Shown: positions 11,786 to 24,900 of the stretch, in pieces | Layout: each line of letters opens with the position of its first letter | How positions within the stretch are numbered: the stretch's first letter is position 1 | From: a virus | Lineage: Duplodnaviria; Heunggongvirae; Uroviricota; Caudoviricetes | Reading direction: 5' to 3' (one strand) | Length of the DNA: 39,238 nt | IMG/VR virus record: IMGVR_UViG_2728369393_000005 | Translations under genes and position numbers: made by a program | The notes under the pieces: model-generated | Seen by the model: the letters and a program-made list of their open reading frames with translations, nothing else | Told to the model about the DNA's origin: nothing | Database searches by the model: none

Positions 11786-13401
11786 TTATTTATTGGTGAG
11801 TACTACGTTCCATGGCAGGAGTTCATCAACTCGGTTGGAAGGCCATTCCGGCAGTACGCTCAGGATATGGCGCAGATACGCTTCCGGATCGATACCGTTC
11901 AGACGGCAGGTGCCGATCAGCCCGTACAACAGTGCTCCACGCTCGCCGCCGTGATCGCTGCCAAAGAACATAAACTTTTTCTTTCCGAGACAGACTGCAC
12001 GAAGCGCTCTTTCCGCAGCATTATTATCCGCCTCCGCCAGACCGTCATCACTGTAATAACAGAGGGCATCCCACTGATTCAGTACATAGCTGAACGCTTC
12101 GCCCAGTCTGGATTTTTTCGACAGCGTACCATTCTTCTCCACCATCCATTCATGCAGCGACGTCAGTAACACTTTGCTTCGCTGCTGCCTGACGGCAAGA
12201 CGCTCTGACTCCGGTAATCCCCGTATTTCATCCTCGATGGCGTACAGTTCACTGATTCGCTTCAGGGCTTCTTCTGCCGTCGCACTTTTGCTGCTGATGT
12301 ATACATCGTGGATTTTTCGCCGGGCATGGGCCCAGCACGCAACTTCTGTCAGTGCACCACCTTCACGTTCTGCACTGAACAACCTGTCGTAACCTGTGAA
12401 CGCATCCGCCTGCAGGATACCCCGGAAGGGGCGGAGGTGTTGCTCCGGGTGTTTCCCCTGCCGGTTCGGCGAGTACGCGAACCAGACCGCTGGAGGAGAT
12501 GACGAACCCACATTGCGATCATCCCGGACATACGTCCAGATACGCCCTGTTTTCGCCTTTTTCTGACCCGGTGCCAGTACCTTTACCGGTGTGTCATCAG
12601 TGTGAACCTTGCGGGTGTTCATTACATAACGGTACAGGGCATCATTCACCGGTGTCATTAACTGGCAGCACGCGTCAACCCAGTTGGAGAGTAAGGCCCG
12701 GCTCAGTTCGACACCCTGGCGGGCAAAGATTTCACTCTGACGATACAGTGGCAGATGTTCGCAGTATTTTCCCGTTAACACGCGGGCAAGTAATCCGGGG
12801 CCCCCGCGATACCACGCTCTATCGGGCGGGACGGCGCCGGTGCTTCAACAATACAGTCACATTTTGTACAGGCTTTTTTTACCCGTTCTGTGCGGATCAC
12901 TTTCAGGGCACTGCTCACCAGTTCCAGCTGTTCAGCGCTGACTTCCCCCAGATAATCCAGCTCACCGCCACACTCCGGGCAACAGCTTTCTTCTGGCTCC
13001 AGGCGGTGTATTTCTCGGGGAAGGTGTGCCGGTAACGGACGACGATGGCGCGACTGTCGCAACTGGCGGGGAACCTGAGGATCGTCTTCCCGCCCACTGT
13101 AACGATCGCTGTCCTGTTCACGTTGTTTCAGCAGAGCCTCAGCCAGTTCAACTTCACGACGCAGTTTTTCAGAACGGGTACCGAACAGCATCCGGCGCAG
13201 TTTTTCTATCTGAGCCCGCAGATGTTCTATTTCCCGTTCATCTTCTTCGATCTTTTCTTCGGCACGTGTCAGTGCAGAGCGCAGGAAGGCTTCCGTCTCT
13301 TCAACCAGACTCAGTTGCTGGTCTTTCTGACGGAGGGCTTCAGCCTGCTCAGAGAGCAATCTTTCCAGCTCTGCGATGCGAATGAGGTATTTCTGACTCA
13401 T
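11786..13401 (-). pseudogene. IS66 transposase TnpC, split by a frameshift at a G/C homopolymer (12797..12805)
   Basis: N-terminal fragment 12775..13401 (Cys-rich zinc-finger CCPECG ... CTKCDC) and C-terminal fragment 11786..12781 (GKYCEHLPLYRQ ...) together equal a full-length TnpC. Confidence 0.75.
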
Positions 13402-13431
13402 GACCGTTTTTATAATGCGGTCAGGAGTTTT

Positions 13432-13782
13432 TTACAACATTGTCAGTGAGTTACGGCTGGATGTTTTTGGCTGACGCCAGTCCAGCTTATCGAGGAGCAT
13501 TGCCAGTTGCGAGCGGGTAATGGATACCTTGCCGTCACGTACCGCAGGCCAGATAAACTGGCCTTCCTCCAGGCGTTTGGTGAACAGGCACAGACCATCA
13601 GCATCAGCCCAAAGAATTTTGACGGTGTCACCCCGTCGGCCACGGAAGATAAACAGGTGACCGGAGAAGGGATTATCATTCAGCACATGTTGTACCTGTT
13701 CTCCCAGTCCGTTGAAGGATTTACGCATATCGGTAACGCCGGCAACGAGCCAGATACGGGTACCTGATGGGAGTGAGATCAT
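13432..13782 (-). CDS. IS66 family TnpB (Orf2)
   Basis: 116-aa ORF (MISLPSGTRIWLVAGVTDMRKSFNGL ...) typical of IS66 Orf2, upstream of tnpC. Confidence 0.8.
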   Translation of the reverse strand: MISLPSGTRIWLVAGVTDMRKSFNGLGEQVQHVLNDNPFSGHLFIFRGRRGDTVKILWADADGLCLFTKRLEEGQFIWPAVRDGKVSITRSQLAMLLDKLDWRQPKTSSRNSLTML

Positions 13783-14204
13783 CTTCCCCTCCCGGTCAGT
13801 TCACGGATCAACACCGTGAGCAGCTCTGGCGATGGATTTTCCAGCGTCATGTTACCGTGACGGAATTCCACCTTGCAGGAACTGGCACTGACTCTGGTCT
13901 GAGTGGAAGTGGATAAAGACGGCGCAATGGCCGCCACAGGTTCTTTCTGCTCATCCGGCGTTATTTCTACAGGTAATAATTCAACGCCAGTGTCAGAAGA
14001 GGTCGTTACCGGAAGACGCCGCGAAACACGCCCTTCGTTCTGCCAGAGCCTGAGCCATTTGAAAATAACATTATCATTGACGCCATTTTCACGTGCAATC
14101 TGTGCAACACAAGCTCCAGGTTGTGATGCCAGTTCCACCATACGAAGTTTGAATTCATTCGAATAGTTTTTACGAGGTTCTTTTCGCCAGTCCTGTAATT
14201 CCAT
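13779..14204 (-). CDS. IS66 family TnpA (Orf1, HTH)
   Basis: 141-aa ORF overlapping tnpB by 4 nt; first gene of the IS66 operon. Confidence 0.75.
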   Translation of the reverse strand: MELQDWRKEPRKNYSNEFKLRMVELASQPGACVAQIARENGVNDNVIFKWLRLWQNEGRVSRRLPVTTSSDTGVELLPVEITPDEQKEPVAAIAPSLSTSTQTRVSASSCKVEFRHGNMTLENPSPELLTVLIRELTGRGR

Positions 14205-14257: not shown

Positions 14258-16183
14258 ATGGCTACATACGGCGGTCAGTTTACGCTTACGGTGATCACCG
14301 GGATTACGTCAACGCCTTCTCCGGATCGGGATGGTGACATCCTGGAGCCGGAGGGGGCGGAGTTTGGCTGTGCGATCCCGTTTCTCTGGCAGCATGACCA
14401 TTCCCGCCCGGTGGGCCAGTGTACGGTACGCCGGGTCAGTGAAGGTCTGGAAATCACGGCAACACTGGTGAAGCCCGTACCGGATATGCCGTCGCAACTG
14501 GCTGCCCGGCTGGATGAGGTCTGGGCGGCCATTAAGACCGGGCTGGTCAGGGGGCTGTCCGTGGGCTTCCGTCCCCATGAATACACCTTTCTGGACGGAG
14601 GCGGACTGCATTTTCTGCGCTGGGAACTGATGGAGGTGTCTGCCGTCACCGTGCCCGCGAATGCGGAATGCACCATCCGGACCATTAAATCTTACGACCG
14701 CCCGTTTTCTGCCGCGTCCGGCAACCGGAAACCGGTGGTGAAAATCGCATCTTCTGCCGTCGCTGCGGCACAGTCAACAACCGTTTTTCATAAGGAAAAG
14801 ACAGTAATGAATACTGGTGAACAGATTAAAAGTTTTGAAAACAAGCGTGCTGCACTGGCAGCCTCTCTTGAGGAGATCATGACCAAAGCCGCAGAGGAAG
14901 GCCGCACGCTGGATGTGGAGGAGGAAGAGCATTACGACAACACCGCGGCGGAAATCCGCCAGGTGGATGCGCACCTGAAGCGTCTGCGTGAACTGGAGGC
15001 CGGTAAGGCCGCCACGGCACAGCCGGTGAAACAGGCCGGTAACGGTGACGTTGTGACGGTGAGTTCAGTGACGGTGAGTTCAGCGCCGGTGATCCGTGTG
15101 GAGCAGAAACTGGATAAGGGGATTGGCTTTGCCCGCTTTGCCAAATCGCTGGCTGCGGCTAAAGGTGTCCGCTCTGAGGCCCTGGAAGTGGCCCGTCGTC
15201 AGTATCCGGATGACAGCCGTCTGCACCATGTCCTGAAATCGGCGGTGGGGGCGGGAACCACCACGGATCCACAGTGGGCAGGCAGCCTGTCTGAATACCA
15301 GGAATATGCGCAGGACTTTATTGACTATCTGCGTCCGCAGACCATTATCGGGCGATTTGGTCAGGGCGGGATCCCTGCACTTCGTCAGGTGCCGTTCAAT
15401 ATCCGCGTGCATGCCCAGGTGTCCGGCGGTGCTGCCAGCTGGGTGGGGGAGGGTAAGGCAAAACCGCTGACGAAGTTTGATTTTGAATCCATCACCTTCA
15501 GTCATGCGAAGGTGTCGGCCATTGCGGTACTGACGGAAGAACTGATCCGTTTTTCCAGTCCGGCTGCTGATGCGCTGGTCCGTAATGCGCTGGCAGAAGC
15601 GGTGGTGGCGCGTCTGGACACAGACTTTGTGGACCCGAAAAAAGCGGCGGTGGCGGATGTCTCCCCGGCGTCCATCACCCATGATGTGAAGGGCACGGCA
15701 TCAACCGGTAACCCGGATGCGGATGCCGAGGCCGCGTTTGGCCAGTTTGTGACGGCAAATCTGCAGCCCACTGGTGCGGTCTGGCTGATGTCCAGCACGA
15801 ATGCCCTGGCGCTGTCCATGCGTAAAAATGCGCTGGGTCAGAAGGAATATCCGGACATGACCCTGCTGGGCGGGACCTTTCAGGGGCTTCCGGTGATTGT
15901 CTCCCAGTATGTGGGTGACCAGCTGGTACTGGTGAATGCACCGGATATTTATCTGGCGGATGACGGCGGTGTGGCAGTGGATATGTCCCGTGAAGCGTCA
16001 CTGGAAATGCAGTCTGAGCCGGGCGGCGACAGCACCACACCGTCGCCGGTGGAGCTGGTTTCCATGTTCCAGACCGGCAGCGTGGCCATCCGTGCGGAGC
16101 GCTGGATCAACTGGCGTCGTCGCCGTACTGCGGCGGTGGCGGTGATCACCGGTGTGAACTACGGCAGTGCGTCCGGCGGCTGA
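14258..16183 (+). CDS. HK97-family prohead protease fused to major capsid protein (641 aa)
   Basis: N-terminal DRDGDIL ... LSVGFRP ... LMEVSAVTVPAN protease motifs, then a capsid-like C-terminal domain; the first ~11 codons lie inside the IS66 terminal repeat, so the true start may be GTG 14291. Confidence 0.75.
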   Translation: MATYGGQFTLTVITGITSTPSPDRDGDILEPEGAEFGCAIPFLWQHDHSRPVGQCTVRRVSEGLEITATLVKPVPDMPSQLAARLDEVWAAIKTGLVRGLSVGFRPHEYTFLDGGGLHFLRWELMEVSAVTVPANAECTIRTIKSYDRPFSAASGNRKPVVKIASSAVAAAQSTTVFHKEKTVMNTGEQIKSFENKRAALAASLEEIMTKAAEEGRTLDVEEEEHYDNTAAEIRQVDAHLKRLRELEAGKAATAQPVKQAGNGDVVTVSSVTVSSAPVIRVEQKLDKGIGFARFAKSLAAAKGVRSEALEVARRQYPDDSRLHHVLKSAVGAGTTTDPQWAGSLSEYQEYAQDFIDYLRPQTIIGRFGQGGIPALRQVPFNIRVHAQVSGGAASWVGEGKAKPLTKFDFESITFSHAKVSAIAVLTEELIRFSSPAADALVRNALAEAVVARLDTDFVDPKKAAVADVSPASITHDVKGTASTGNPDADAEAAFGQFVTANLQPTGAVWLMSSTNALALSMRKNALGQKEYPDMTLLGGTFQGLPVIVSQYVGDQLVLVNAPDIYLADDGGVAVDMSREASLEMQSEPGGDSTTPSPVELVSMFQTGSVAIRAERWINWRRRRTAAVAVITGVNYGSASGG

Positions 16184-16227: not shown

Positions 16228-16449
16228 ATGGCAAAAATCCGATATCTGCAGGGTACACATGATGCCCGGCCCGGGGATATCCGGGATGTCGCACAGCCGT
16301 GTGCGGAGGTGCTGGTTCGCCTGGGAAAGGCGGAGTACATCACGGTGCGACGTCCGGCAGGTCAGAAAAAGAAACGTGATGCGGAGCATGGCGAATGTGG
16401 AACCTTTTACGGCGAACCCGAAAAAACCAGAAATCAGGACGTGACGTAA
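16228..16449 (+). CDS. Hypothetical small protein (73 aa), doubtful
   Basis: ORF in the gap between capsid and portal genes; overlaps the portal start region; no motif. Confidence 0.25.
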   Translation: MAKIRYLQGTHDARPGDIRDVAQPCAEVLVRLGKAEYITVRRPAGQKKKRDAEHGECGTFYGEPEKTRNQDVT

Positions 16450-17758
16450 GAGAGGCGGGCTGGACCAGCCTGTTTCAGGCGGTGGCTGAGCCCTTTGCCG
16501 GCGCCTGGCAGCAGGGTGTGAAAGCCGATCCGGAAAGTGTCCTCTCCTTTCATGCGGTGTTTTCTTGCATTTCGCTGATATCCCAGGATATCGCCAAAAT
16601 GCGGCTGCGCCTGATGCAGACGGATACACAGGGGATCCGCCGTGAAAAACGGCAGGGGGATATTGCCCGTCTCTGTCGTCGTCTCAATGCACAGCAGAAT
16701 CGTATCCAGTTTTTTGAACTGTGGCTGAACGCCAAACTGCGTCACGGCAATACGGTGGTGCTGAAAATCCGTAACTCCCGGGGCAGATCAAAGAACTGCG
16801 TATTCTGGACTGGAGCCGGGTTGAACCTCTGGTGGCGGATGACGGCGAGGTGTTCTATCGCATCACGCCGGACCGGAACTGCGGGATCACGGAGGCGGTG
16901 ACGGTGCCTGCCCGGGAAGTGATCCACGACCGGTTTAACTGTTTTTTTCATCCGCTTGTGGGGCTGCCGCCGGTGTATGCCGCCGGGCTGGCGGCCACGC
17001 AGGGGCATCATATTCAGGAAAATTCGACGTCTTTTTTCAGAAATGGCGGCAGGCCGTCCGGGGTGATTGAGATCCCCGGCAGTATTACGGAAGAAAATGC
17101 GAAAAAACTGAAGAGCAACTGGGACAGCGGGTATACCGGCGAAAATGCGGGGAAAACGGCCATTCTGAGCAACGGAGCAAAATACAACCCCACGACGTTT
17201 TCACCGGTGGATGCGCAGACGGTGGAACAACTGAAGATGACCGCTGAAATTGTCTGTTCGGTGTTCCGTGTCCCGGCCTACAAGATTGGCGTTGGCCAGC
17301 CACCTTCCAGTGACAACGTGGAGGCGCTGGAGCAGCAGTATTATTCCCAGTGCCTGCAGACGCTGATTGAGTCCATTGAACTGTTACTGGATGAGGCGCT
17401 GGAAACGGGGGAAAACGAGAGTACGGAGTTTGACGTCACCACGCTGCTGAGAATGGACAGCGAACGTCGCATGAAAACGCTGGGTGAATCGGTGAAAAAT
17501 ACGCTTCTCACGCCCAATGAGGCCCGTAAACGTGAGAACCTGCCGCCCCTTGCCGGCGGTGATGCACTGTATCTTCAGCAGCAGAACTACAGTCTGGAGG
17601 CGCTGTCCCGTCGTGATGCCCGTGAGGATCCGTTCGCGTCTTCCGGGAAAACGTCGTCAGGCACACGCCAGGAGGGCGCGTCTGACGGTAATAAGGCCAT
17701 AAGCGAAACAGAGCGTGATGCGGTGAAGGCGATGTTCAGGGGGATACTGCGAAAATGA
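16395..17758 (+). CDS. HK97-family portal protein, interrupted by a frameshift near 16775..16790 (CCCGGGG run)
   Basis: Fragments 16395..16901 and 16832..17758 join into one portal-like protein; GKTAILSNGAKY ... VDAQTVEQLKMTAEIVCSVFRVPAYKIG is a portal signature. Confidence 0.7.
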
Positions 17759-18978
17759 CAGAGCGTGAACTGTCCATTATCCGTGCGCTGGGTGAAGAAT
17801 TCTCCACGGTGCTGGCGGATTTACAGCGCACATTTGAGGGGAAGATGGCCTCGCAGGCACAAGCGTTTGAAGAGAAACTGACTTCCCTGTCGGCGGTATT
17901 ACAGAAGCATGTGACGGTGGATGAGGTGCGTCCGGTTCTGCAGGCGATGGTGGATGACGCTGTGGGGGCCATTCCGGTACCGCGTGATGGTCGTGATTAT
18001 GATCCGGATGTACTGCAGCAGGCGGTGAATGATGCGGTTGCGAATATTCCGGTACCGGCGGACGGCAAAAGTATTACCCCGATGATGTGCGTCCGATGCT
18101 TGAACAGATGGTGAAGGAGGCGGTAAGCCATATTCCTGTTCCGCGTGATGGTCGTGATTACGATCCGGAAGTACTGAAGCAGGCGGTGAATGATGCGGTT
18201 GCGAATATTCCGGTACCGGCGGACGGCAAAAGTATTACCCCCGATGATGTGCGTCCGATGCTTGAGCAGATGGTGAAAGAGGCGGTAAGCCATATTCCTG
18301 TTCCGCGTGATGGTCGTGATTACGATCCGGAAGTACTGCAGAAGGCGGTGAATGATGCGGTCGCGAATATTCCGGTACCGGCGGACGGCAAAAGTATTAC
18401 CCCCCGATGATGTGCGTCCGATGCTTGAACAGATGGTGAAAGAGGCGGTAAGCCATATTCCTGTTCCGCGTGATGGTCGTGACTATGATCCCGATGTTCT
18501 GCAGAAGGCTGTTCTGGAGGCGGTGAGAGCCCTGCCGGCTCCGCAGGACGGGCGTGATGCCACGGCACTGGAAATAATCCCCGCCATTGACGATCAAAAA
18601 TCCTTTCCCCGGGGCACGTATGCCACACACCAGGGCGGACTCTGGCGGGCGTATGAAAAAACGCACGGGATGCGGGGATGGGAATGCCTGGTTGACGGGG
18701 TGGCCGATATTGACGTCAGCATGACCGGCGAACGGTCGTTCACTGTGGTGGTCCGGCAGAGCAGTGGCCAGCGTACGGAAAAAACATTTTCCCTGCCGGT
18801 GATGCTCTACCGCGGTGTGTTCAGAGCCGGTGAAACCTACCACCCCGGTGATACGGTGACGTGGGGGGGCTCGCTGTGGCACTGCAACAGTATGACCGGT
18901 GATAAACCCGGAGAAGCTCATTCATCAGGCTGGACCCTGGCTGCCAAACGTGGACGGGATGCAGGAGGCGGAAAATGA
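17755..18978 (+). CDS. Head-module protein with tandem 54-aa repeats, broken by two frameshifts at C-runs
   Basis: Three ORF fragments (17755..18114, 18087..18410, 18352..18978) share the repeat VRPMLEQMVKEAVSHIPVPRDGRDYDPEVL ... ANIPVPADGKSITP; C-run is C4, C5, C6 in successive repeats. Confidence 0.55.
17920..18567 (+). repeat. Tandem coding repeats, unit about 162 bp, 3 full copies plus a divergent partial copy
   Basis: Units 17920..18080 (161 bp), 18081..18242 (162 bp), 18243..18405 (163 bp), then a degenerate copy; length differences are confined to a poly-C tract. Confidence 0.8.
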
Positions 18979-19661: not shown

Positions 19662-20104
19662 TCGAAACCCTGCTGGATTTTTCGGGGCTGGAGGACATCA
19701 GCCGCGATTTGCAGCTTCTGAGTGGTGCGGAAAATAACCGGGTGCTGCGTGAGGCAACCCGTGCGGGTGCGAATGTGCTGAAAGAAGAAGTGGTGTCACG
19801 GGCACCGGTACGCAGGGGAAAACTGCGCCGCAATGTGGTGGTCCTTTCCCGGCGCTCCCGCGATGGCGGGATGGAATCCGGTGTCCATATCCGTGGTGTT
19901 AATCCGGACACCGGTAACAGCGATAACACCATGAAGGCGGATAACCCGCGCAATGCTTTCTACTGGCGGTTTGTGGAAATGGGGACCGTGAATATGCCAC
20001 CGCACCCGTTTGTGCGCCCGGCGTTTGATGTGCGCAGTGAACAGGCAGCTCAGGTGGCGATTGCGCGGATGAACCGGGCCATTGATGAGGTACTGAGACG
20101 ATGA
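19658..20104 (+). CDS. HK97 gp10-family tail component
   Basis: 148 aa with PHPFVRPAF motif typical of HK97 gp10 family; overlapping start/stop with neighbours. Confidence 0.65.
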   Translation: MIETLLDFSGLEDISRDLQLLSGAENNRVLREATRAGANVLKEEVVSRAPVRRGKLRRNVVVLSRRSRDGGMESGVHIRGVNPDTGNSDNTMKADNPRNAFYWRFVEMGTVNMPPHPFVRPAFDVRSEQAAQVAIARMNRAIDEVLRR

Positions 20105-20446
20105 CGGAGGCTGATTTGTATCCTCATCTGGCGCATCTTGCCGGCGGGCAGGTGTACCCGTATGTGGTCCCCCTGCTGGATGGCAGGCCGTCGGTGGCGC
20201 TTCCGTGGGTGGTTTTCAGCCTGATTTCATCGGTGTCGGCGGACGTGATGGGCGGGCAGGCGGAGTCCTCTAGTGTCGGTGCAGATAGACGTTTATGCCG
20301 GGACTGTGACGCAGGCGCGTCAGATACGTCAGGATGCCCGTGAAGCCATAATGCTGCTGGCCCCGGGATCCGTCAGTGAAATGCAGGACTATATTCCGGA
20401 AAACCGCTGTTACCGTGCAACCCTGGAGTTTCAGGTCACGGTGTGA
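20101..20446 (+). CDS. Tail completion protein (DUF3168-like), apparently frameshifted near 20250..20279
   Basis: ORF 20101..20343 continues in another frame (VQIDVYAGTVTQARQIRQDAREAIMLLAPGS ... LEFQVTV-stop at 20446). Confidence 0.4.
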
Positions 20447-21964: not shown

Positions 21965-24900
21965 ATGGCGACGTTACGTGAACTGATTATCAAAATTTCG
22001 GCAAATTCACAGTCATTCCAGTCGGAGCTCCAGCGTGCTTCCCGTATGGGCAGTGAATATTACCGGACCCTGCAGAATGGCGGGCGTCAGGCCGCTGCGG
22101 CAGCCCGGGAGCAGCGACGTGCCCTGGCAGAACTGAACAGCCAGTTGACGGAAATTCGCGGTTCTGCTGTCGGAATGGCTGGCGCATTTGCCGGTGCCTT
22201 TGCCACCGGACACCTGATTTCACTGGCTGATGAGTGGAGTTCCGTGAATGCCCGTCTGAAACAGGCGTCGCAGTCATCTGATGAATTTTCGTCATCACAG
22301 AAAGTGCTGATGGATATCAGCCAGCGGACAGGTACCGCTTTTTCGGATAATGCGGCCCTGTTTGCCCGTTCGGCTGCCTCGATGCGTGAATATGGTTACA
22401 GTGCTGATGATGTGCTGAAGGTGACGGAGGCCATTTCCACGGGGCTGAAAATCTCCGGTGCCAGTACGGCTGAGGCGGGTTCGGTGATCACCCAGTTCAG
22501 CCAGGCGCTGGCACAGGGTGTGTTGCGCGGTGAGGAATTTAATTCGGTCAATGAAAGTGGTGACCGGATCATTCGTGCACTGGCTGCAGGCATGGGCGTG
22601 GCCCGTAAAGATCTGAAGGCGATGGCGGACGATGGTCAACTGACGGCGGATAAAGTCGTTCCTGCGTTAATCAGCCAGCTGGGGGTATTGCGTGATGAAT
22701 ATGCCGCCATGCCAGAAACGGTTTCCGGTAGTATCACGAAGGTGGAAAACGCCTTTATGGCCTGGGTGGGCGGAGTGAATGAGGCCAGCGGGGTGACAAA
22801 AACGCTCTCCGGCGTGCTGAACGGTGTTGCCGGACAGATTGATAATGTGGCAACAGCTGTGGGTGCGCTGGTTGCCGTCGGGGTTGCCCGGTACTTTGGC
22901 AATATGGCCTCCGGAGCGATGTCTGCCACGGCAGGACTTGTGACGGCTGCACGTAATGAAGTTGCACTGGCGGAAGCACAGTTCAGGGGAACGCAGATTG
23001 CCACAGCGCGGGCAAGGGCAGCCGTGTACCGTGCTCAGCAGGCCGTGGCGGCAGCCCGCGGGACGGAGATGCAGATTGCTGCAGAGGCCCGTCTGGCGGC
23101 CACACAGGAACGCCTGAACAGAAATATTGCTGCCAGAAGCGCCGCCCAGAATGCGCTGAACAGTACAACGGCGGTGGGCTCACGTCTGATGAGCGGTGCG
23201 CTGGGGCTGGTTGGTGGCGTACCCGGACTGGTGATGCTGGGGGCTGCAGCATGGTACACGCTGTACCAGAATCAGGAGCAGGCCAGGGAGTCTGCGCGCC
23301 AGTATGCACTGACGATAGATGAAATCGCGCATAAAACGCCGTCAATGTCTTTGCCTGAAGCCTCAGATAATGAAGGACGAACACGGGCGGCGCTGACAGA
23401 GCAGAACCGGCTGATTGATGAACAGGCCAGTCGGGTGAAATCCCTGCAGGAAAAAATCGCAGGATATCAGTATGTTCTGGCGAACCCGGGCTGGACGACC
23501 GGTGACGGATTCATGATAAACCATCTGACCTCGGTGAAGACCGTAACGGAAGGGCTTGCTCAGGCAACAGAGCAGCTTGCCGTTGAGCAGTCCCGTCTGG
23601 CACAGATGCAGGAAAAAGCGCAGTCCATTCAGGATGTGCTTGCCGGGCTGGAAGACCGTCGTGTGGCGTTAATTCGTCAGCAGGCGGCAGAGCAGAATAA
23701 GGTGTACCAGTCCATGCTGGTTATGAACGGTCAGCATACGGAATTCAACCGTCTGCTGGGGCTGGGGAATGAACTGCTTCAGCAGCGTCAGGGGCTGGTG
23801 AATGTACCGTTACGGCTGCCACAGGCCACCCTGGATGATAAACAGCAGAGTGCCCTGACAAAAACAGAGCGTGAGCTGGCCCTGTCCCGACTGAAGGGGG
23901 AGGAAAAAGAGCGTGCCCGGCTGGGGTATGCGGCGGATGACCTTGGTTTTGTGGGGGATTCGTATCAGGAGGCGAGACAGCGTTATATCAGTAATGCCCT
24001 GGAAGCCTGGCGTAATAACGAGGCGAACAAACCTAAATCCCGGGGTGGAAAATCAGAGACGGAAAAAGCGGAAGACAGTTTTTCCCGGCTACTGAAGCAG
24101 CAGAAAGAGCAACTGGCACTGGCGGGTCAGAATACAGAGCTGGCGAAGCTGAAGTACCAGACTGCGCAGGGCGAACTGAAAACCCTGACGGAGATGCAGA
24201 AGCAGGAACTGCTGCGTAACGCGGCCCTGATTGACCAGCAAAAAATCCGGGAACAGTTGCGATCCCGGGAAGAGACCCTGAAGAATGATAATGTGGCTGC
24301 GCGTGCATCAAATGAAGCCGAACTGCTGGGATACGGGCAGGGAGAACGAGCCAGGGAACGCATGCGGGAGTTGCAGCAGATCCGCGACAGCTTCCGCCAG
24401 AAGGATGCGGACCTTCAGTCTCAGTATCAGACCGGGGATATCAGTGAGGATTTTTACAGACAGGCACGGGCACAGAACGCGCAGTATCTGAGCGAACGCC
24501 TTAAGGACCAGACAGCCTTTTATGCCGAATCGGATGTGCAGCGTGCGGACTGGCAGAAAGGGCTGCAGGAGGGATTCAGTAACTGGGTGGATAATGCGTC
24601 CGATTACGCCTCACAGGCAGCACAGCTTGCGACGGAGGGTATCTCAGGGATGGTGAATAACATCACGGAGATGCTGAACGGAAATAAAGTGGAATGGCGC
24701 AGCTGGGCCTCATCAGTGCTGCAGGAAATATCAAAAGTTCTTATGAATGCCGCGATTGTCAACGGAATTAAGACGGCGGCAAACGGTATGTCCGGTGCGG
24801 GAGGATTTCTCGGCAGCATTGGTGACTGGCTGGGCGGAGCGGTGGCCAATGCAAAAGGCGGCGTGTATACCTCGGCAAACCTGAGTGCGTACAGCAATAG

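Follow-up and report, generated by a model that had tools for sequence, protein, structure and literature searches.

A portal-adjacent tandem-repeat gene in a defective Escherichia coli prophage, with poly-C runs of unequal length and split or fused portal alleles in its relatives

The window analysed here, a stretch of 39,238 nucleotides, is a lambdoid prophage of attaching-and-effacing E. coli, located beside tRNA-Ser and mtfA. Its nearest genome, E. coli CFSAN004176 (NZ_CP014583.1), aligns with it across all 39,238 bases, with three substitutions and six indels. The head module contains a portal-adjacent repeat protein gene, here termed X. Features of this region are listed below.

About 11790-14204: IS66-family element (tnpA, tnpB, transposase), directly upstream of the capsid gene, at the position of the terminase genes in intact relatives
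14258-16183: prohead protease/major capsid fusion of 641 aa (PF04586 and PF05065)
16395-17758, plus strand: HK97-type portal gene (PF04860, E = 2e-79; TIGR01537), broken in the window by a G4 run
17739-17743, plus strand: G5 run near the 3' end of the portal gene and within it, 11 nt before the start codon of X
17755-18978, plus strand: gene X, 1224 nt, encoding 407 aa when its C4 and C6 runs are both set to C5
17755-17916, plus strand: long N-terminal alpha-helix of X, residues 1-54, predicted from the AlphaFold2 model of a 353-aa homologue (P0005)
17920-18567, plus strand: four 162-bp (54-aa) units forming eight helix-loop half-units, the copy-number-variable part of gene X
18077-18080, plus strand: C4 run closing unit 1, lacking one base of the in-frame C5 found in CFSAN004176, JLK-2012 and Sakai Sp10
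18238-18242, plus strand: C5 run closing unit 2, in frame as is normal (ACC CCC GAT)
18400-18405, plus strand: C6 run at the end of unit 3, one base longer than the in-frame C5, at which the original frame is restored
18553-18975, plus strand: conserved C-terminal all-beta domain with two CBM5/12-like modules
18863-18869, plus strand: G7 run in the C-terminal domain, the longest homopolymer of gene X, taken as an internal control for slippage
18975-19301, plus strand: gp6-like head-tail connector immediately downstream of X (PF05135, E = 1.4e-7; RefSeq annotation)

The prophage is defective, as DNA packaging of its own is impossible with IS66 in place of the terminase genes. By the annotation of CFSAN004176, the cargo within and after the tail module (about 27840-28366 on the minus strand and about 34400-38500) includes sodC (Cu/Zn superoxide dismutase), an Ail/Lom-family gene and the NleG, DUF1076 and EspW type III effectors. 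The gene for tail completion protein gp17 (20101-20343 and downstream in the window; 23025-23370 in the CFSAN004176 locus, L003) is frameshifted in the RefSeq relative. The window equals the relative across this stretch, and the defect (or error) is therefore common to both assemblies.

Upstream of X, a 73-aa ORF separates the protease/capsid fusion from the portal gene. The matches to PF04586 and PF05065 rule out reading the 641-aa product as a lambda-like large terminase. Four distant homologues of X (35-43% identity) could be traced to contigs. Two of these contigs have the order TerL, protease/capsid fusion, a protein of about 75 aa, portal and X, with X overlapping the end of the portal gene; in the third, the portal gene lies directly upstream of the X homologue with an 18-nt gap, and in the fourth the X homologue overlaps an upstream gene that is cut. 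The same protease/capsid fusion precedes the portal gene in the distant relatives L088 and L090. In distant phages with the portal-X module (L088, 7941-11105; L089, 2682-4533; L091, 5920-8186), glycosyltransferase, methyltransferase, pyruvyl transferase and Hexapep genes lie just downstream. This hints at glycan modification of virion proteins beside a protein with a CBM-like tip in those phages.

A preliminary description of this DNA had noted tandem 162-bp repeats with C4/C5/C6 runs, in a gene between the portal and head-tail connector genes. Tandem Repeats Finder detected a single strong array spanning 17971-18509 (score 957; 3.3 copies of period 162, with 95% matches), and units anchored on the motif GATGAkGTGCGTCC begin at 17920, 18081, 18243 and 18406 and measure 161, 162, 163 and 162 nt. 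The array is genuine and far beyond chance, and the profile matches of its two neighbours agree with the position described. The C runs are indeed the sole source of length difference among units 1-3 and set the frame, which passes along gene X from 1 to 0 and back to 1. Because the C4 and C6 runs shift the frame, X is listed in the window as three ORFs (17755-18114, 18087-18410 and 18352-18978; 119, 107 and 208 aa). The view of three near-identical units followed by a divergent fourth holds for the divergence of unit 4; near-identity is limited to units 2 and 3 (157 of 163 positions), which unit 1 matches at 85% and unit 4 at about 79% identity. In these two outer units, the half that adjoins the core (the second of unit 1, the first of unit 4) closely resembles it. 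That the repeats encode a repeated protein module is borne out: the protein repeats with a period of 25-30 aa, half a unit, in which a short helix leads into an I-P-x-P-x-D-G loop, and there are eight such half-units.

Copy number, which the preliminary description suspected might vary and proposed to check in related prophages, is not invariant among related E. coli prophages. Loci for comparison comprised 80 from IMG/VR together with phage and genome loci. The start of gene X was found in 83 loci, 76 of them with an intact gene and seven with a disrupted one. Intact products are of 353 aa (19 loci), 405/407 aa (46), 461 aa (8), 515 aa (1) and 569 aa (2). The length steps are always of 54 aa, that is, of whole units, giving three to seven units per array, and locus L005 is one unit short. 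Related loci thus differ by whole units, as a copy-number-variable tandem repeat does. Presumably, 162-bp units would be gained and lost between prophages through unequal recombination. In-frame gain and loss of units, altering the length of a rod-like segment, is likewise seen in other phage structural repeats, such as the collagen-like repeats of tail fibres and those of the tape measure. In X, by contrast, the repeated module is of 54 aa with two helix-loop elements, and the protein belongs to the head module, beside the portal. The window also carries collagen-like Gly-X-Y tandem repeats (period 9/45) at 33652-33742 and again at 33324-33351, a position that corresponds to the tail fibre gene of CFSAN004176.

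The C4 and C6 runs are best seen against the other differences between the window and CFSAN004176. All six indels lie in homopolymers, and two of the three substitutions, all of which are transitions, fall within or beside G or C runs. Five of the indels disrupt genes of the window that are intact in CFSAN004176 (the IS66 transposase, the portal gene, X twice and gpJ); the sixth disrupts espW in CFSAN004176, not in the window. The four indels outside X are as follows.

12801-12802: IS66 transposase, C5 in the window and C3 in CFSAN004176
16780-16783, plus strand: portal gene, G4 in the window and G5 in CFSAN004176, splitting the portal into ORFs 16395-16901 and 16832-17758
28848: gpJ, G3 in the window and G4 in CFSAN004176
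37213: espW, T8 in the window and T7 in CFSAN004176; the window keeps an open frame of 364 codons, and the RefSeq genome has a frameshift

An excess of homopolymer indels over substitutions is typical of long-read consensus errors, and the pattern of indels seen here would fit random homopolymer miscalls of this type in both assemblies. Once both runs are set to C5, the translation of X is identical to the 407-aa product of CFSAN004176, and it is 100% identical to the matching part of protein P0006.

Related loci point in the same direction. The 246 junctions between units in 84 other loci read ACC-CCG-GAT (116), ACC-CCC-GAT (111) or a further in-frame variant (19, with ACT/ACA-CCx); none contains an out-of-frame C run, so that the single C4 and the single C6 are those of the window. 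The ACC-CCG junction interrupts the C homopolymer, which is hence not conserved against synonymous alternatives. In a set of 5,426 complete E. coli genomes, four of 1,074 matching complete-genome records had the exact 80-nt context of the C4 run, and none had the exact context of the C6 run at full length. Two of the four C4 records were inspected; each has a single C4, at different junctions and with no compensating C6, and both come from assemblies with other frameshift calls nearby. The G7 run of the C-terminal domain is G7 in 70 loci and G6 in one, the pattern being unreadable in 12 of the 83.

It is likely that C4 and C6 are single-base homopolymer errors of assembly and that the true sequence is C5/C5/C5, encoding an intact 407-aa protein. 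Private mutations in a prophage that was defective beforehand are the less likely alternative. Some observations sit uneasily with error: a paired loss and gain of one base that keeps the gene length is no obvious outcome of two independent errors, and, since all three substitutions are transitions, a mismatch-repair-deficient lineage could yield a similar spectrum. Moreover, with IS66 in place of the terminase genes the prophage is defective, so that real decay mutations are plausible.

We accordingly weighed the reading in which C4 and C6 are real private frameshifts, accumulated in a defective and unselected prophage where X is a true pseudogene, and consider it rather unlikely. Besides the loss of the terminase genes to the IS66 insertion, it draws on the frameshifted genes common to the window and its closest relative (the integrase, a DUF1627 gene and tail completion gp17) and on the rare single C4 alleles of other genomes. 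However, a ratio of six indels to three substitutions against a near-identical genome is far from normal mutational spectra, and the indels are all homopolymeric, including a gain of two bases in the multicopy IS66 transposase. A loss and a gain of one base at homologous positions of one gene are also unlikely as an independent pair.

The preliminary description had left the C runs as either a sequencing artefact or a slipped-strand on/off switch. The homopolymer-only indels favour the artefact, and the uniformly in-frame junctions of the other loci speak against the switch. As a contingency locus, the tracts would turn a head protein on and off or alter its length, and the gene does offer three homopolymers at equivalent in-frame positions, each of which shifts the frame when its length changes. 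Such loci are known for poly-G and poly-C tracts in surface genes of Neisseria, Haemophilus and Campylobacter, where a homopolymer within the coding region likewise sets the frame. High-rate slippage typically needs a tract of seven or more G or C, and homopolymer switches are known from surface antigens of growing cells, not from late structural genes of prophages. The tract of X, in contrast, has a normal length of 5 nt, below that at which slippage would be expected of a contingency locus, and X is a late phage structural gene. ACC-CCG or ACT-CCG replaces the tract at more than half of the junctions, and close relatives do not show the tract-length polymorphism of a phase-variable locus, apart from the few C4 records described above. 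The G7 run, which would be expected to slip more readily, deviates in one of 71 readable loci. Being short, not conserved as a homopolymer and not polymorphic, the tract does not behave as a switch, and this explanation is very improbable.

Recoding is harder still to credit: a path of -1 then +1 through C4/C5/C6, in which the net length is kept, would restore the full-length protein by two compensating ribosomal frameshifts, but the arrangement is absent from all other loci compared, each shift soon runs into a stop (for the first ORF at 18114, 34 nt past C4), and we know of no precedent for two compensating shifts of this sort. Assembly error thus remains the preferred account of the C4 and C6 runs, and homopolymer miscalls in long-read assemblies create false pseudogenes among prophage structural genes.

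Protein X is a member of a large uncharacterised family that is conserved beside the portal gene in a widespread phage head module. Among 1.84 billion cluster representatives, 5,782 matched at E <= 1e-3 and 627 at E <= 1e-30; the relatives are mostly of 250-700 aa, with repeat stretches that vary in number. In the AlphaFold2 model of the 353-aa homologue (114-sequence alignment), a helix spans residues 3-50 (pLDDT 90-96), and the all-beta C-terminal domain is very confident (pLDDT 97-98). Structure prediction of the repeats, as the preliminary description had proposed, gave six short helices joined by low-confidence loops (pLDDT 52-79).

The C-terminal domain is similar in fold to solved chitin-binding domains. 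The Pfam profile for CBM5/12 scores 20.7 bits on X, under its gathering cutoff of 26.2, and 24.7 and 25.7 bits on homologues; a search of solved structures with the family profile retrieved nothing but designed helical repeats and weak matches to chitin-binding domains. In fold, and weakly in profile, the domain resembles CBM5/12 chitin-binding modules and also the distal modules found in the tail fibres of phages 7-7-1, Milano and Pa193. This likeness is predicted, and unlike those modules and fibre tips X has no catalytic or fibre context.

In GenBank and RefSeq, X bears the label of a portal protein. The 407-aa X has no match to a portal domain in Pfam or NCBIfam, and it is the 454-aa product of the upstream gene that contains the domain in full (PF04860, positions 2-321 of 321; TIGR01537, 2-343 of 343), so the label was rejected; it arises from the fused alleles described below (phrog_2271, an 859-position profile). 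X lies directly downstream of the portal gene and is occasionally fused to it, as are minor head proteins of the MuF/SPP1 gp7 type. Nevertheless, no match of X to Phage_Mu_F (PF04233) was found at E <= 0.1, and its architecture of coiled helix, repeats and CBM5/12-like modules is entirely different. The suggestion of a decoration or surface-exposed protein fared less well: no match to a decoration family (lambda gpD, T4 Hoc/Soc or Ig-like) was retrieved in Pfam, PHROGs, NCBIfam, a sequence search of the PDB or fold searches, and in-frame portal fusions argue for a portal-attached position. The literature yielded nothing specific on the function of X, on a portal frameshift in Stx phages or on virion proteomics of long-tailed Stx phages.

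Those fusions depend on the G run at the end of the portal gene. With G5, the portal ends in ...FRGILRK and a stop codon, and X starts at the overlapping ATGA (17755-17758), giving two genes. With G6, portal and X form one ORF that reads ...FRGDTAKMTERE... across the junction. Among 83 loci, 54 have G5 and 29 have G6, and the frame of X is intact in nearly all, in either state. About 29 flank haplotypes carry G5 and eight carry G6, one common haplotype being mostly G6; identical 730-nt flanks occur with both. A hypervariable switch between G5 and G6 was rejected: on the common flank haplotype, exact matches to G6 were found in 747 complete-genome records and to G5 in 31, and G5 otherwise tracks other haplotypes. 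G5 and G6 are therefore two standing alleles, mostly lineage-linked.

Programmed frameshifting at the G run was also considered and rejected. The region downstream of the run showed no notable stimulatory RNA structure on folding of 17725-17850 (z = -0.92), and the rare AUA codon that follows GGG is not kept, being AUU in several alleles, which leaves the slippery GGG alone.

The fused form is annotated in phage 2851 as a single 859-aa portal, and its junction sequence is also present in YYZ-2008 and Stx2a_WGPS6. Going by the title of a 2008 paper by Strauch, phage 2851 is said to be a transducing Stx2c phage, and it is reportedly viable. A portal fusion has arisen independently in a distant lineage (P0243, 1237 aa). 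In the Sakai genome, which is of Sanger quality, Sp10 is split (ECs_1974, 454 aa; ECs_1975, 407 aa with C5/C5/C5) and Sp12 is fused (ECs_2248, 859 aa). Sp10, the prophage with this type of head, has been scored as fully intact and was transferred to K-12, and the portal of Sp12 was scored as defective (Asadulghani et al., PMC2669165). Both architectures thus persist in transmissible phages, split in Sp10 and fused in phage 2851, the viability of the latter being as reported above.

Every RefSeq genome examined shows portal and X as one 'frameshifted' portal pseudogene. The fused allele appears to be taken as the reference, which brings the label onto the G5 form. A stand-alone X is the norm in the family, so the two-gene layout is ancestral and the label is misleading. 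RefSeq systematically labels the G5 layout in this way, though it is present in the transferable Sp10.

The location of X was approached from these alleles. Since X occurs both as a separate protein (G5) and as an in-frame extension of the portal (G6), it most likely resides at the portal vertex, bound to the portal crown or continuous with it. Its gene is always beside the portal gene and tolerates fusion to the portal C-terminus, where the protein would therefore most likely bind. In solved portals the C-terminal crown faces the capsid interior, and X is for this reason more likely to be portal-attached, possibly internal, than a shell decoration. The G6 portal recalls that of P22, whose C-terminal helical barrel is likewise a long and partly helical extension; X, however, adds 350-570 aa with a terminal beta domain, and most relatives encode it as a polypeptide of its own. 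Taken together, gene order, natural fusions and structure prediction suggest a portal-attached protein, probably inside the head. An external collar or whisker would likewise fit the fibre-like build and the glycan-binding-like tip. Iyer et al. (2017, PMC5512222) interpret domains fused to portal or MuF proteins as cargo that is packaged in the head, at the portal, and possibly injected.

More speculatively, X may be an internal portal-crown protein whose glycan-binding-like tip acts in DNA delivery, the G5/G6 tract setting whether X is free or is joined covalently to the C-terminus of each of the twelve portal subunits. Some fusion protein could also arise in G5 phages if tRNA-Gly slips by -1, at a low level, on GGG, where the rare AUA codon comes next. 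We regard this scheme as a long shot, doubtful as it stands.

The repeats and gene X are in themselves ordinary and already public: over 1,200 complete genomes of E. coli carry them, as do about 90 records of Stx phages. A lead of some interest lies outside the array that was first flagged, in the split and fused portal-X alleles and in the large portal-adjacent family to which X belongs.
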